Made by a program: the position numbers and the translations under genes. DNA of 64,000 nucleotides, taken from the NCBI GenBank assembly GCA_048940925.1, contig JBHLOC010000022.1:19442-83441 (forward strand), in the 5' to 3' direction. Of this stretch, positions 1,422 through 7,005 are shown in pieces. Below the pieces are notes generated by a model. That model did no database searches and was not told the origin of the DNA. It was given only the letters and a program-made list of their open reading frames with translations. The DNA comes from Promethearchaeota archaeon. Lineage in GTDB: Archaea > Asgardarchaeota > Lokiarchaeia > Sigyniarchaeales > SOKP01. Within the stretch, counting starts at the first letter, position 1, and each line of letters begins with the position of its first letter.

Positions 1422-2753
1422 ATGAAAGAAACAAAAGAAGTATATTTAGTAGACCATGTAAGGACACCATTTTCTCAAGCAAATCCTCTAGATCCCGACG
1501 ATGACGTTTTTAGTAAAAAGTGGGGTACCGAACTTGCAGCTCATGTTTTGAGGGATATGTTTGACACCCGAATACCAAGCAAAGGCAGTACACTCAAACG
1601 TGAGAACGTTAGTGAGGTTCTGGTTGGCGGTACTTTATTACAACATGAACATGGAACATTTGGGGGAAGAATGCCCGGATTTATGACAAAATTTCCCTTC
1701 CATGTACCTGCAACGGTATTCGATAAACAAGACTGTTCTGGTATGACAACTTTACATGTTGGATTTGGAAATATTGCATTGGGTTATTCTAATGTAGTAG
1801 TAACTATAGGTTTTGATCAATTTACTCGAGTGCCATTACACAATTATGATGGAAAAGTAAAAGTATTTGGAATTCCCCCAGATAAACTGATGCTTGATCC
1901 AGAGAATAAATGGTATAATGATGATTTATATGATTGGAAAACTAGTCGTCTATTATTTCAGGCAGCACAAAAACTTGCGGAGGAAGAAGCAGATCTATTT
2001 ACTAAAGATGAATTGGATAAATTTAGTGTACGAAGTCACAATCTAGCAGAAAAAGCTCAGGAAAATGGATATTTCAAAGAAGAAATTATGGGTATTAAAG
2101 GACATAAAGTAGGAGATCCTGATAATGAAATTGAGATCGAAAAAGATCAATCTATTAAAAAAGCAGCTACACTAGAAAATATTACTAATGCACCCTCTAT
2201 AAGCATTCCTGGATGGGCAGGTGGCTATAAAAATCCTATACTCACAAAAGATGAATATGTCGCGAAATTTGGGACAGATAAGGGTATTATAACAACGGGA
2301 AATAGCTCTCCTTTGTGTGATGGAGCGTCACTTTGTTTGCTAACATCTAAAGAAGCTCTTAAAGAATACAACCTAAAACCCATGTCTAAAGTAGTCTCGA
2401 TTGGTTTTGCAGGAGTAGATCCAACTGTACGTGGACGAGGGATAGTACCAGCAGCTCAAATGGCTTTAAAGCATGCAAATTTAAAAGCGGATGAAATAGA
2501 TTATTGGGAAATTAATGAATCCTTTAGTGTTGTTGCACTATATGCTGCTAATAAATTAGGAATTGATTGGGAAAATAAGATGAATATTCATGGGGGTGCA
2601 ATATCAATTGGTAATCCAGCATCTGCTACCAGCTTGAGGATTACGACAACATTAGCCAGAATACTAAAAGAGAAAAAGGCAAAATATGGACTTGCAGCTA
2701 TGTCGTGTGGTGGTGGTCAGGGAACAGCTGTGATAATTGAAAATTTAGATTAA
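1422..2753 (+). CDS. thiolase-family protein with substituted catalytic residues
   Basis: Thiolase motifs RTPF, RSH, GNSSP and EINESF are present, but the catalytic positions read D104, N398 and S428. Confidence 0.85.
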   Translation: MKETKEVYLVDHVRTPFSQANPLDPDDDVFSKKWGTELAAHVLRDMFDTRIPSKGSTLKRENVSEVLVGGTLLQHEHGTFGGRMPGFMTKFPFHVPATVFDKQDCSGMTTLHVGFGNIALGYSNVVVTIGFDQFTRVPLHNYDGKVKVFGIPPDKLMLDPENKWYNDDLYDWKTSRLLFQAAQKLAEEEADLFTKDELDKFSVRSHNLAEKAQENGYFKEEIMGIKGHKVGDPDNEIEIEKDQSIKKAATLENITNAPSISIPGWAGGYKNPILTKDEYVAKFGTDKGIITTGNSSPLCDGASLCLLTSKEALKEYNLKPMSKVVSIGFAGVDPTVRGRGIVPAAQMALKHANLKADEIDYWEINESFSVVALYAANKLGIDWENKMNIHGGAISIGNPASATSLRITTTLARILKEKKAKYGLAAMSCGGGQGTAVIIENLD

Positions 2754-2799
2754 TAAAATAAAATATGAGGTTAAAATAATAAAAAGAGGTATAAAAATT

Positions 2800-4104
2800 A
2801 TGAAAATAAGAGAAGTATACATTACAGATTATATTAGAACACCATTTTCAAGATCTCGACCAAGAGAACCACCAAGAGATGTTCTTGGAAATTTACGTCC
2901 CGATGTAATGACTGCTTTAACATTAACGGAAATGTTTGATAATCGATTAAAAGATAAAGTTAAACCCGAAGATGTAGATGAGTTTTATATTGGGGCTACT
3001 CATTTTAATAATGAGTATGTAACTTTTGGAGGAAGATATCCCATATTTTTAGCGAAATTTCCAGCAAAAGTATCATCTGTTGCATTAGATAGAGCTTGTG
3101 GCTCAGGAATGACAGCTGCTTCAGTAGGATATGATAATATTGCTTTGGGATATTCTGATGTTGTAATAGCTTCGGGGAAGAATAATGCTACTATGTCACG
3201 ATCAAGACCTCCGACGGTAAGAGAACCAAACCCTGCTATGTTGAAAGGACATGAATTTTTTGTTGATGATGTTGTTGACTTCCGTTGCGCATATTCAATG
3301 TTACAAACCGCACAAAAACTCCATGAAGTGAATGCAAACATATTTTCAAAAGAAGATAATGATAGATTTGCAGTTCGCAGTCATCAATTAGCCGCGAAAG
3401 CTCAAGAAGAAGGATTTTTCAAGGGGGAAATTGTCCCTATTATGGGACACATAGAAGGAGATGAGGATACTCCATTATTAATTGAACATGATACATCAGT
3501 AAGAAAAAATGCTACATATGAGGGCACAAAAGATTTAAGGGGATTAACCACCCCTGGATGGGCTGGTGGATACTATAATCCACTTTTAACTAAAGAAGAA
3601 TACATTGAAATATTTGGAACAGACCAAGGCTTAGTAACTGCGGGAAATTCATGTCCAACAAATGCAGGAGCAGCAACCTTATTGTTGATGTCAGAAGAAG
3701 CCATGAAGAAACATGATCTAGATCCATTAGTACGCATTGTTTCTATTGGATTTGGAGCGGTTGATCCTACTGTTATGGGAAGAGGTCCAGTTCCAGCATC
3801 CTGGATGGCATTAAAGCATGCAGGATTAACAACTGATGATATTGACCTTTTTGAAATCAATGAGGCATTTGCTATTGTAGCTCTAAACTGGATCCATGAG
3901 ATGGGATTAGATAGTCGAATTGATGATATAAACATTAAAGGTGGTGGCATTTCCATAGGTCATCCGATCGCAGCAACAGGTCCCAGAATAGTTGGTACAT
4001 TAGCAAGAATCTTAAAAGAGAAGAATGCTCAACTTGGCCTTGCTACGATGTGCTGTGGTGGAGGTCAAGGAACTGCTATGATACTTGAGAATACAGATGT
4101 TTAA
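2800..4104 (+). CDS. acetyl-CoA C-acyltransferase (thiolase)
   Basis: DRACGSG (C100), NEAF, GHP (H388) and CCGGGQG (C418) all intact. Confidence 0.92.
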   Translation: MKIREVYITDYIRTPFSRSRPREPPRDVLGNLRPDVMTALTLTEMFDNRLKDKVKPEDVDEFYIGATHFNNEYVTFGGRYPIFLAKFPAKVSSVALDRACGSGMTAASVGYDNIALGYSDVVIASGKNNATMSRSRPPTVREPNPAMLKGHEFFVDDVVDFRCAYSMLQTAQKLHEVNANIFSKEDNDRFAVRSHQLAAKAQEEGFFKGEIVPIMGHIEGDEDTPLLIEHDTSVRKNATYEGTKDLRGLTTPGWAGGYYNPLLTKEEYIEIFGTDQGLVTAGNSCPTNAGAATLLLMSEEAMKKHDLDPLVRIVSIGFGAVDPTVMGRGPVPASWMALKHAGLTTDDIDLFEINEAFAIVALNWIHEMGLDSRIDDINIKGGGISIGHPIAATGPRIVGTLARILKEKNAQLGLATMCCGGGQGTAMILENTDV

Positions 4105-4159: not shown

Positions 4160-4744
4160 TTATAATCTATTTTTTGGTCTTGAGGGTATATAATAGACTA
4201 ATGGATTAGTACCTACTTCTGGTTTAAGTTGAAATAACCCATTTTTAGTTAATTTTTTTGATACAATACTATCAGGGTTATTTAAGTCTCCAAAAAATAA
4301 CGCCTGACCTTCACAACAAATTACACAGAAAGGTTCAAGTCCTTGATCAATCCTATGAGCACAAAAATTGCACTTTCGCGCAAGGTTACTCTCATCTTCA
4401 AATACAATGATATTATATGGACATGCTGCTAAACATAATTGACACCCAGTACATAGTTCTTGGTCTAATATAACAATCCCATCATTTCTTTTTTGCAGAG
4501 CTTCCTCAGGACAAGATTCAACGCAAGGTGGGTTCTCACAATGATTGCATAATTTAGGAAGGAAATCCAATGTCAAATTTGGAAAGCTTCCCCCGGGAGT
4601 ATCCTTCACATCACTACCTTGTGTTTCAACCTTTATCCAATAATCAGTTGTATTATTTTCAATTTTACATGCTATACTACATGCTTCACATCCGATACAT
4701 CTTTCTTGGTCAATAACCATTCCTAATTGTTTTACTTTACTCAT
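4160..4744 (-). CDS. molybdopterin oxidoreductase iron-sulfur subunit (DmsB/NrfC-like)
   Basis: CIGCEACSIAC, CNHCENPPCVESCP, CTGCQLCLAACP and KCNFC motifs; ATGA overlap with the catalytic subunit gene. Confidence 0.92.
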   Translation of the reverse strand: MSKVKQLGMVIDQERCIGCEACSIACKIENNTTDYWIKVETQGSDVKDTPGGSFPNLTLDFLPKLCNHCENPPCVESCPEEALQKRNDGIVILDQELCTGCQLCLAACPYNIIVFEDESNLARKCNFCAHRIDQGLEPFCVICCEGQALFFGDLNNPDSIVSKKLTKNGLFQLKPEVGTNPLVYYIPSRPKNRL

Positions 4745-7005
4745 TTAATTTCACCCTCACTTTTTATTATTTCAACAGCAACATCATTCATATGCATATT
4801 TGGTTCATAGACTTTATCCTGTACAGGATTAATAATGTCATGTGTTAAATGATTCAGACTTCCCTCTCTAAATTGCTCTATCCACCAACCTTCCGTAATA
4901 TCAACCACTCCAGGTTTAACACCTTCAGTTACTCTAGCTTTCAGTGTTGTTCGAGCTCTATCATTATAGACGGTAACCAAATCACCAGTTATTATATTTC
5001 GCTCAGTAGCATTAATTGGATGAATATCCACTATTGGCTCAGGATTTAAATCTAATAAAGATTGCACATTAGCAAACATAGAATGTGTACGAAAACGACT
5101 ATGACCATTAATAAGTGTCAAGGGGTATTTCCTTATACCTGGAGTTATCGGAGCTTCAATTGGAGGAAGATAAACGGGAAGAGCTTCTCCATCATCATAT
5201 AGCTGTTCTGTGTATAGTTCGATTTTTCTTGAAGGTGTATTAAAACTTAGAGGAAACTTTGCCCCTTCTGGAAGCTTCGGTAACCTCATAGCTTGGGTCT
5301 TCAGCGTGTCTCGAGTGATCCCTTCAAAGGTGCGTGTTGCCATAATAAGATCTATTAGTCCTTCTTCTCCACCTTTGAAATATTCTCCAAATCCAAGTCG
5401 TTCAGCAAGTTCAGCTACAATATTAACATCAGATTTAGATTCATATAAAGGTTCAATTATTTTTTGTTGGAATTGTACATAAGGATATGGTTGAGCTAGA
5501 AAATCTGAAAATTCTAAAAAACTACAAACAGGAAGAATTAAATCGGCATATCGAGCAGAAGGAGTCATGAATAATTCAGTTTGTACAATAAATTCTAATT
5601 TAGGATAGAATTCATTAATTATTTTATTAGAATTAGCACACTGATTTAAGAAGTTAATGAAAGCAAACCAGAGAGCCTTTATTGGGTAAGGCTTCCCAGA
5701 GATCACAGCATCATATAGGTTTAGGATTCCAAGTCTATGGAAGCTAGGTTTATCAGGGATGGCCTTAAGAAAAGGGTTCCAATTTAAAATTGCTGGTATA
5801 TATCCTGAACTTACTGATGTAGTTATATTACCAGTAATAGCAGCTACAGAAATCACTCCTCTTAAAGAGATATCTCCATGATATGTCCTTGTAAAACCCA
5901 TATGAGTTAAAAACACGACTTTTTTGGAGTTGCCAATTCTTTTAGCTAATTTAATTATAAGATTTTTATCAACTCCTGTAATTTCGGCAGTTCTTTCGGG
6001 AGTGTATTCAGATGTTAATTCAATCAATAATTGAAGTACTGGTTTACATTCAATTCTATTTATAGTGTAAGTTCCAGTAAGATTTGCATCTTTTACATTT
6101 GAACGAGTTAGTGTTTTATAAGAATTAGAAGGTTCATGCCATATAATATAAGCATCTGATTTTTTAGCATCAACGTCTTTTCCTCGTAACATTTTTCCAT
6201 TATCAGTTCTTACCAAATAAGGTCCATTTGTGTGTTCTAAAATGAATTTTTTATCATGTAATTCATTTTGAAATATAAAATTCATAACACCTAGCGCTAA
6301 AGCACTATCTGTTCCAGGATTTAGACCAATATAATCATCAGCTTTTGATGCTGTAACTGTGAAACGAGGATCTACTACAATAACTTGAGTTCCTTGTTCT
6401 TTAGCATCCATTATTTTTCTCATATTTTGTAAAGGCATGGATTCAGCGGGGTTTGTAGCCCATATCATTAACAATTCAGGGTATTTCCTCTGCCAAAATT
6501 CCCCATGCAAATGCATATAAGGAAATTGGTGTCCTAAAATTATTCTACTTCCACAGGGTAAGCCTGCATCTCCATACCCCCATGCGCTCACGCGTGTACT
6601 CTGAGTTAGACTAGCTAATCTCAAGTATGCTCCAAATTTGGTGGTACCAGCACCAGGCCCCCCTAATACCCATCCAATCGATTTCCATCCATATTTCTCA
6701 GATAGTTCTTTAAATTTAGAGACAATAATCTCATAAGCTTCATCCCATGATATTCGCTTAAATTTTCCCTCTCCACGTTCACCAACCCGTATCATAGGAT
6801 ATTTAATCCGATCTGGGTGATAAGTAATATCTAAACTAAGGAGACCACGTAAGCAAATTCTTTTTTCCTTTTCATCAGGGAACTCTGCAGGTTCTAACTT
6901 AACAATGCGATCTCCCTTTACATGAGCTAATATTCCACAGCAATCTATTCCACAATGAGCAGGACAAGCTGTCCTTATAATTTTAATATTTTCATTTTTT
7001 ACCAT
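4741..7005 (-). CDS. DMSO-reductase-family molybdopterin oxidoreductase catalytic subunit (no Tat signal)
   Basis: N-terminal CPAHCGIDC...CLRG Fe-S motif, RIKYPM, SWDEA, VDPRFT, YADLILP, C-terminal HS/HP cofactor-binding domain. Confidence 0.92.
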   Translation of the reverse strand: MVKNENIKIIRTACPAHCGIDCCGILAHVKGDRIVKLEPAEFPDEKEKRICLRGLLSLDITYHPDRIKYPMIRVGERGEGKFKRISWDEAYEIIVSKFKELSEKYGWKSIGWVLGGPGAGTTKFGAYLRLASLTQSTRVSAWGYGDAGLPCGSRIILGHQFPYMHLHGEFWQRKYPELLMIWATNPAESMPLQNMRKIMDAKEQGTQVIVVDPRFTVTASKADDYIGLNPGTDSALALGVMNFIFQNELHDKKFILEHTNGPYLVRTDNGKMLRGKDVDAKKSDAYIIWHEPSNSYKTLTRSNVKDANLTGTYTINRIECKPVLQLLIELTSEYTPERTAEITGVDKNLIIKLAKRIGNSKKVVFLTHMGFTRTYHGDISLRGVISVAAITGNITTSVSSGYIPAILNWNPFLKAIPDKPSFHRLGILNLYDAVISGKPYPIKALWFAFINFLNQCANSNKIINEFYPKLEFIVQTELFMTPSARYADLILPVCSFLEFSDFLAQPYPYVQFQQKIIEPLYESKSDVNIVAELAERLGFGEYFKGGEEGLIDLIMATRTFEGITRDTLKTQAMRLPKLPEGAKFPLSFNTPSRKIELYTEQLYDDGEALPVYLPPIEAPITPGIRKYPLTLINGHSRFRTHSMFANVQSLLDLNPEPIVDIHPINATERNIITGDLVTVYNDRARTTLKARVTEGVKPGVVDITEGWWIEQFREGSLNHLTHDIINPVQDKVYEPNMHMNDVAVEIIKSEGEIK

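Follow-up and report, generated by a model that had tools for sequence, protein, structure and literature searches.

We analyzed a 64,000-nucleotide (nt) stretch of DNA from a Promethearchaeota archaeon (contig JBHLOC010000022.1; 'the window' hereafter means this whole 64-kb stretch, to which positions refer) and found two tandem thiolase genes whose products probably act together as an obligate heteromeric thiolase. A tight dimer would contain a single active site, on a principle resembling that of the ketosynthase/chain-length factor (KS/CLF) pairs of polyketide synthesis. The upstream gene (copy 1, the dead or pseudo copy, P0001; positions 1422-2753, + strand) encodes 443 amino acids (aa) with a full thiolase fold in which all five thiolase fingerprints are altered. 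The downstream gene (copy 2, the live partner, P0002; 2800-4104, + strand) encodes 434 aa and carries C100, N354, H388 and C418. The two products are 48% identical over their full length, and the two open reading frames (ORFs) lie on the same strand 46 nt apart. Both proteins match the Pfam families Thiolase_N (PF00108) and Thiolase_C (PF02803) above the curated cut-off, with bit scores of 90.8 and 114.4 for copy 1 and of 117 and 140.5 for copy 2, and automatic annotation labels both genes 'acetyl-CoA C-acyltransferase' (CoA, coenzyme A). Copy 1 has lost all catalytic fingerprints, is under purifying selection and is strictly paired with copy 2; the two copies originated as sister clades and diverged in parallel. 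The original prediction, made from the letters of the window, had described full-length tandem paralogues with a 46 nt gap and an upstream frame free of stops and frameshifts; its coordinates were exact and the ORF of copy 1 is indeed uninterrupted.

Thiolases are recognized by the fingerprints CxS, NEAF, VMG, GHP and CxG, with Cys89, Asn316, His348 and Cys378 as the catalytic residues, and Met157 and Met288 narrow the substrate pocket (PMC3406046). Copy 2 carries the motifs DRAC100GSG, N354EAF, GH388P and C418CGGGQG, shows every fingerprint when aligned to solved thiolases and possesses all four residues (Cys, Asn, His, Cys) of a competent thiolase (EC 2.3.1.9 / 2.3.1.16). By the same four-residue standard copy 1 does not qualify: its sites read D104/N365/N398/S428, with the Asn alone retained. 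Its motifs are DKQD104C105SG, N365ESF, GN398P and S428CGGGQG, so that CxS has become D104-C-S, VMG has become V-R337-G, NEAF has become NESF, GHP has become G-N398-P and CxG has become S428-C-G. All residues named for the two copies in the original prediction were confirmed by motif positions and by the codons: D104 (GAC, 1731-1733, + strand) stands at the site of the nucleophilic Cys and is followed by the lineage-specific C105 (TGT, the pair spanning 1731-1736), N398 (AAT, 2613-2615, + strand) stands at the site of the GHP histidine and S428 (TCG, 2703-2705, + strand) at the site of the CxG acid/base Cys. Both pocket methionines are altered as well, the equivalents of Met157 and Met288 being L178 and R337, respectively. 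Across the pseudo clade the Met157 equivalent is Leu and the Met288 equivalent mostly Arg, with R, M, Q, I, W or S found at this site.

These losses are shared by the whole clade of copy 1, which comprises 39 full-length orthologues of 55-89% identity, each with an intact frame. None of the 39 keeps Cys, His or Cys at the three catalytic sites. The nucleophile site 104 is D in 33, W in three, S in two and A in one; the His site 398 is N in 36, L in two and E in one; and the acid/base site 428 is S in 34, P in two, A in two and T in one. Conversely, C/N/H/C is present in 28/28 sequences of the partner clade and in nearly all of 60 other Asgard thiolases. Since the same losses recur in all 39 orthologues, the residue pattern is not due to chance. 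The prediction had proposed to look for orthologues with replaced C/H/C next to an active copy, and this is what we found, with the live copy adjacent in 15/15 loci. It had also considered that C105, one position out of register, might act as a shifted nucleophile. We rejected this candidate: Cys occurs at position 105 in just three aligned sequences (P0001, P0004 and P0027) and in the later locus L096, while the other sequences have Gly (mostly), Ala or Ser. C105 is therefore too poorly conserved to be the nucleophile of the copy 1 family.

A search of 5.8 billion proteins placed the copy 1 orthologues in about 38 clusters of 55-89% identity, all derived either from sediment metagenomes or from assemblies of Asgard archaea labeled as Promethearchaeota, Lokiarchaeota or Thorarchaeota; ordinary thiolases start below them, at about 50% identity. 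We estimated dN/dS (the ratio of nonsynonymous to synonymous substitution rates) pairwise by the Nei-Gojobori method (NG86), using only pairs with dS < 1 because synonymous changes approach saturation in DNA this rich in AT, and obtained 0.11-0.20 for copy 1 and 0.09-0.16 for copy 2 in the same genomes. Among close relatives the ratio of dN in copy 1 to dN in copy 2 is about 1.0-1.3. Thus, purifying selection acts on copy 1 with nearly the strength seen for the live enzyme. The claim that the catalytic residues were not lost by random decay is borne out by these values, which are not near 1.

Conservation of the remaining sequence gives a similar picture. We considered 197 family-conserved columns, conserved in at least 85% of the 60 other Asgard thiolases. 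The dead clade keeps 136/197 and the live clade 145/197. The 31 columns lost in the dead copy alone include the catalytic residues, the pocket residues and an N-terminal arginine cluster; the basic residues R18, R20, R26, R33 and R235 (partner numbering) are found in all active relatives and are gone from the pseudo copy. Another 22 columns are lost in the live copy alone and retained by the pseudo copy. Separately from these columns, the Ser of the pantetheine loop that is conserved in other thiolases is kept in most dead copies and replaced by Cys285 in every partner, and the E-H-M motif after strand N-beta-4 reads N-N-A in the partner. Each copy therefore keeps ancestral features that are absent from the other, and copy 2 is itself unusually distant from the other thiolases of Asgard archaea.

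In 15/15 loci, regardless of the neighboring genes, the dead copy comes first and its live sister follows on the same strand after 13-46 nt. Each of five species-representative genomes harboring a copy 1 orthologue has the copy 2 orthologue as the next gene downstream, and four distant metagenomic loci (55-67% identity) are paired as well, two of them without nearby beta-oxidation genes. The association also holds in the opposite direction. With four partner-clade proteins as the starting point, a pseudo-type gene was found directly upstream on each contig; two of these genes are complete, and the other two, truncated where the contig ends, still show GNP and SCGGGQG. Genes of the copy 1 type (at least 63% identity) occur in 5/301 sampled genomes of the phylum. 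One of these five matches lies at a contig end and the partner is adjacent in the other four. One genome of the same genus harbors two dead/live pairs, 77% and 63% identical to copy 1 and belonging to different subclades (G276:C120:5496-8171 and G276:C17:27581-30240, the latter being locus L091). As two pairs of different subclades occur in one genome, the pair multiplies as a unit, by duplication or by transfer. A profile search of 1.84 billion representatives recovered the pseudo clade as a single cluster at 50% identity. The pseudo clade is a narrow and rare family.

The phylogeny of the two copies was reconstructed with IQ-TREE (44 rows, LG+C20+F+G4; supports given as ultrafast bootstrap / SH-like approximate likelihood ratio test, SH-aLRT). 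Copy 1 falls within the FadA-like Asgard thiolases. The dead clade (100/99) and the partner clade (100/100) were each recovered, as was their position as sisters (100/99), and a quick tree of 63 rows agrees. The deepest split and a crown group are common to both clades and the branching is largely parallel; the order of two intermediate lineages differs between the clades, at weakly supported nodes. Across 12 loci the distance matrices of the two copies correlate with r = 0.94. Sister clades with largely parallel branching indicate a single old tandem duplication, after which the pair was inherited as a unit and was doubled in one genome. The stem branches measure 0.21 for the dead clade and 0.37 for the live clade, showing that both copies diverged quickly after the split, and the internal depth of the dead clade exceeds 0.5 substitutions per site.

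How the two proteins might interact was addressed with structure models. An AlphaFold2 model of copy 1 (51-row alignment) shows the thiolase fold with a predicted local distance difference test score (pLDDT) of 92.6, residues 140-170 scoring 59-77, and its best Foldseek matches are the FadA structures 3goa and 1wdk with template modeling (TM) scores of up to 0.92. The low-scoring stretch corresponds to a loop private to the pseudo clade, which spans approximately residues 144-173 (1851-1940, + strand). It contains a G-K-V insertion and the invariant residues V146, P153, W164, Y165, Y170 and W172, and the equivalent loop of the partner is conserved to a far lesser degree. The modeled copy 1/copy 2 heterodimer reached an interface score (ipSAE) of 0.97 in three runs versus 0.00 for the best of three controls; in the calibration of the tool, the ipSAE mark was reached by 58/80 solved complexes and by 2/110 mismatched pairs. 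The runs had at least 96% of their contacts in common and the pLDDT of the partner was 95. In the model the interface is the canonical strand-to-strand tight dimer, with residues 93-103 of copy 1 against residues 89-99 of copy 2, plus part of the private loop, of which residues 149-153, 156-157, 164, 166 and 169-170 are predicted to contact the partner. The residue 25 positions upstream of the nucleophile (Q64 in the Zoogloea ramigera thiolase, R65 in PcaF) is known to enter the active site of the neighboring subunit (PMC7337054). Its equivalent in copy 1, T79, is Thr in 37/39 pseudo sequences, and the corresponding site of the partner varies (T in 16, A in 11 and L in one). This asymmetry is small and fits a heterodimer.

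We therefore favor the following arrangement, in which the two copies would bind each other as the models suggest. Copy 2 would provide the only working active site, in which Cys100 would act as the nucleophile and Cys418 as the acid/base, the oxyanion hole being formed by Asn354 and His388. Copy 1 would be a non-catalytic sister paralogue that replaces the second protomer of the canonical tight dimer, the two pairing via the strand that precedes the nucleophile loop. The dimer would then have one active site and might assemble further into an (alpha-beta)2 tetramer. Copy 1 may stabilize a partner that drifted from the family norm, and its conserved 72-84 segment together with the private 144-172 loop may help to shape the acyl-CoA tunnel of the partner. 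A possible role of copy 1 in substrate specificity is hinted at by two features, namely the conserved segment around T79 and the location of the private loop at the modeled interface. A bolder version, which we put forward tentatively, holds that copy 1 is a specificity subunit resembling the chain-length factor, that the aromatic 144-172 loop and the 72-84 segment rebuild the acyl tunnel of the partner, and that the heteromer may cleave a bulky or unusual 3-ketoacyl-CoA derived from the anaerobic pathway around a molybdenum/tungsten enzyme that is encoded next to the pair in most loci. As for the role that was predicted for copy 1, namely that of a subunit without catalysis in a heteromeric or regulated enzyme, catalytic loss, selection and pairing all speak for it, and the heteromer itself is a matter of the model.

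Several observations weigh against an obligate heteromer. The evidence for binding of the two copies is the model, whose ipSAE score may stem from the solved thiolase homodimers that the modeling tool has learned and does not distinguish a heterodimer from a homodimer. Clade-specific conserved residues were not significantly enriched at the modeled interface (10/42 or 24%, and 15/73 or 21%, versus a background of 16-17%; p = 0.12 and 0.20), and the interface of the partner is no more conserved than its other residues, that of the pseudo copy only slightly more so (0.845 at the tight-dimer interface versus 0.816). Adjacency and parallel trees are also expected for co-inherited proteins that merely act in one pathway. 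Moreover, D104, N398 and S428 are strongly conserved in the crown group although a pure scaffold would not obviously need them, and the pseudo copy keeps the GNSS motif of the pantetheine loop, so that it may still bind a ligand.

This last feature would also fit copy 1 being a self-standing binder of acyl-CoA or CoA, probably a homodimer, that senses, sequesters or hands over substrate or regulates copy 2 allosterically with no permanent heteromer formed. The thiolase fold is retained along with the loop motif, strict gene linkage would suit a regulator of a neighboring gene, and there is a precedent in the Mycobacterium smegmatis thiolase-like protein MsTLP1, which lacks the catalytic residues and binds CoA weakly (PMC3406046). 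We nevertheless consider such a binder unlikely. It would have had to give up the five arginines listed above as well as both pocket methionines; the heavy divergence of the partner and its long stem are better explained by co-adaptation within one complex; and the tight-dimer interface has remained as conserved as the remainder of the protein. Alternatively, copy 1 could be a repurposed enzyme which, by means of D104, N398, S428 and R337, catalyzes another acyl-CoA reaction of the same pathway (e.g. retro-aldol cleavage, hydration, decarboxylation or thioester hydrolysis) and is linked to copy 2 through the pathway, with no contact required. The Ltp2 and Sal aldolases set a precedent, as they have a thiolase fold with a rebuilt active site (PMC12329534). 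In the crown group D104 is strict (33/39) and N398 nearly so (36/39), R337 accompanies D104 in 22/33 sequences, and Asn365 of NE(A/S)F, the Gly-rich CxGGG backbone and the GNSS loop are retained. However, no replacement residue is conserved clade-wide at positions 104, 398, 428 or 337, whereas the pairing is, which makes new chemistry less likely. In deep members Asn365 has changed to Asp, yet pairing with the live copy persists there, and no DUF35/ChsH2 partner was found in the eight loci with Pfam calls. We regard a repurposed enzyme as more doubtful still than the binder, and the 'different chemistry' that had been offered as an alternative is weakened by the deeper members, which carry W/A/S at 104, E/L at 398 and P/A/T at 428. 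The loss of all three catalytic residues would fit a duplicate in decay, with copy 1 as a young pseudogene still free of stop codons. Its dN/dS of 0.11-0.20, frames that are intact in every orthologue down to 55% identity, the 136 family-conserved columns and the invariant private loop all contradict it, as does the age of a clade with a stem of 0.21 and an internal depth above 0.5. On the selection and conservation data we rule out plain decay, to which we assign hardly any probability.

The obligate heteromer that we favor has parallels in the wider thiolase superfamily. KS-alpha and KS-beta (the chain-length factor) of type II polyketide synthases form a heterodimer encoded by adjacent paralogous genes, in which one subunit lacks the nucleophilic Cys. 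KS/CLF is a canonical tight dimer with a single active site whose dead subunit helps to shape the substrate tunnel, and PqsB/PqsC is a similar pair of the superfamily. The Asgard pair likewise consists of adjacent, co-oriented superfamily paralogues one of which lacks the nucleophile, its heterodimer being a prediction of the model. In contrast to KS/CLF and PqsB/PqsC, which are ketosynthases acting on substrates bound to an acyl carrier protein (ACP) or on anthraniloyl substrates, the pair belongs to the Thiolase_N/Thiolase_C family of the CoA-dependent type, and in contrast to CLF, which has a conserved Gln with a decarboxylase role, copy 1 has no clade-wide replacement residue. The degradative thiolases FadA, PcaF and T1 (EC 2.3.1.16; PDB 3goa, 1wdk and 6pcb) share their fold and domain order with the pair; they are the best structural matches and, for copy 2 with its four catalytic residues, also the best sequence matches. 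The pair differs from them in a ~27-aa insertion before the pantetheine loop (compared with 1ulq). Known members of the FadA type are homodimers, homotetramers or bound to FadB, and we know of none with a dead paralogue as its second protomer. A literature search, whose coverage left out most subscription journals, returned no heteromeric thiolase with a dead paralogue and no account of the Asgard pair.

Two further systems are less close. TLP1 of M. smegmatis is a monomer with an extra C-terminal domain over its dimer surface, stands near the thiolases of the sterol carrier protein 2 (SCP2) type and is about 15% identical to classical thiolase (PMC3406046). Like copy 1 it has a thiolase fold in which the CxS, VMG, GHP and CxG fingerprints are not conserved, and it is devoid of thiolase activity (PMC3406046). 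However, copy 1 has neither the extra domain, its Thiolase_C match reaching residue 440/443, nor an affinity to SCP2-thiolases, and it is 48% identical to a live sister beside which it is always found. The steroid side-chain aldolases Ltp2 and Sal are of the SCP-x type, have the DUF35 domains of ChsH2 or of the Shy hydratase as partner and possess a defined new catalytic set (PMC12329534). They resemble copy 1 as superfamily proteins that no longer perform thiolysis and work in complex with another protein, whereas for the Asgard pair no DUF35 gene lies nearby in the loci examined and no replacement catalytic set is conserved. None of the genes called in eight loci (L090, L091 and L093-L098) matched PF01796 or PF12172 (OB_ChsH2_C / zf-ChsH2).

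Thiolases are textbook homo-oligomers. If the heteromer is real, they would join KS/CLF, the trypanosome prozymes and other enzymes that a pseudoenzyme paralogue switches on or modulates, and the expected number of active sites per complex would be halved. Because both genes are annotated as acetyl-CoA C-acyltransferase, reconstructions of Asgard beta-oxidation that count thiolase genes would then need correction. If copy 1 is in addition a specificity factor, the pair would be the first true heteromeric thiolase, and an archaeal case of an enzyme that needs a dead paralogue for its activity. The pair would also be a clean natural case in which to study the transition from a symmetric homodimer to an obligate heterodimer after tandem duplication. 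Its reach is limited, with about 5/301 sampled genomes of the phylum carrying it.

The two genes are probably co-transcribed. An AT-rich intergenic stretch (1204-1421) separates copy 1 from a divergent gene for an Fe-S protein (67-1203, - strand) and presumably contains the promoter of the pair. The 46 nt spacer (2754-2799, + strand) carries a Shine-Dalgarno-like GAGGT at 2786-2790, 9 nt upstream of the ATG of copy 2, and a G-rich motif of this kind (GAGG; AGG in one) precedes the partner ATG at the same spot in 10/10 aligned loci. A sigma-70/intrinsic-terminator scan, which is not applicable to archaea and whose counts were about those in shuffles, found no terminator-like site between the two genes. 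The insertion of ~27 aa relative to the Thermus thiolase 1ulq comprises residues 258-288 of P0001 and 247-277 of P0002 (window positions of about 2193-2285 and 3538-3630), just ahead of the pantetheine loop (PGWAGGY...FGT). Other Asgard thiolases carry a shorter form of it, and the residues G264, W265, G267, G268, Y269 and F283 are specific to the pair.

Near the pair, most loci encode a hydratase and a dehydrogenase of the type of multifunctional enzyme 2 (MFE-2), crotonases, and a cytoplasmic molybdopterin oxidoreductase accompanied by its Fe-S subunit. These neighbors hint at an anaerobic catabolic route. In the window the molybdopterin oxidoreductase (754 aa; Fe4S4, Molybdopterin and Molydop_binding domains) and a Fer4_11 subunit (194 aa) are encoded at 4160-7005 on the - strand, convergent with the thiolase pair. 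Most crown-group loci (L011, L012, L014 and L095-L098) likewise have these two genes after the pair, and in locus L091 a different molybdenum enzyme is encoded divergently upstream of it. The part of the contig just before the window (L009, G000:C74:1-19441) harbors a large catabolic cluster with a crotonase, a second molybdenum enzyme pair, three tandem carboxylesterases, an MFE-2-like short-chain dehydrogenase/reductase (SDR), a metallo-beta-lactamase (MBL) hydrolase and a double hot-dog hydratase. C74:14961-16241 in this cluster encodes one more active thiolase, which belongs to a different Asgard clade. The - strand genes at 67-1203 of the window and at L009:2242-3375 encode two Cys-rich paralogues of ~378 aa, each with a 2x[4Fe-4S] domain at its C-terminus. 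An orthologue of this Fe-S protein is found near the pair in L012, L013, L014 and L096, downstream in L013 and upstream in the other three.

Other thiolases without the catalytic triad were also encountered. The profile search gave three further triad-less representatives, of which two were located (P0272 and P0174); neither lies beside a live sister thiolase and both therefore represent separate cases. P0272 (L099:5001-6266; N/N/N/S), from another lineage, is encoded directly upstream of genes for a crotonase and a 3-hydroxyacyl-CoA dehydrogenase. P0174 (L100:5001-6137; G/N/D/N), also from another lineage, belongs to a paa-type cluster and has a DUF35 gene and an SCP-x thiolase in its vicinity. 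Further ORFs of the source genome with an SCP-x-like thiolase fold (G000:C77:15675, C77:21579, C88:1668, C80:1510 and C57:50429) appear to lack the nucleophilic Cys (e.g. GGATGG at this site) in a distant alignment that is uncertain. A contig labeled 'Candidatus Odinarchaeota' (L010, JBHLQA010000293.1) carries a pair 86% and 89% identical to that of the window and nearly identical to the one on the Promethearchaeota contig L013, which may reflect a binning or labeling problem or a recent transfer. Finally, another Promethearchaeota contig (L017:2452-6670) encodes three tandem thiolases of the other Asgard clade, with C/N/H/C intact in all of them.

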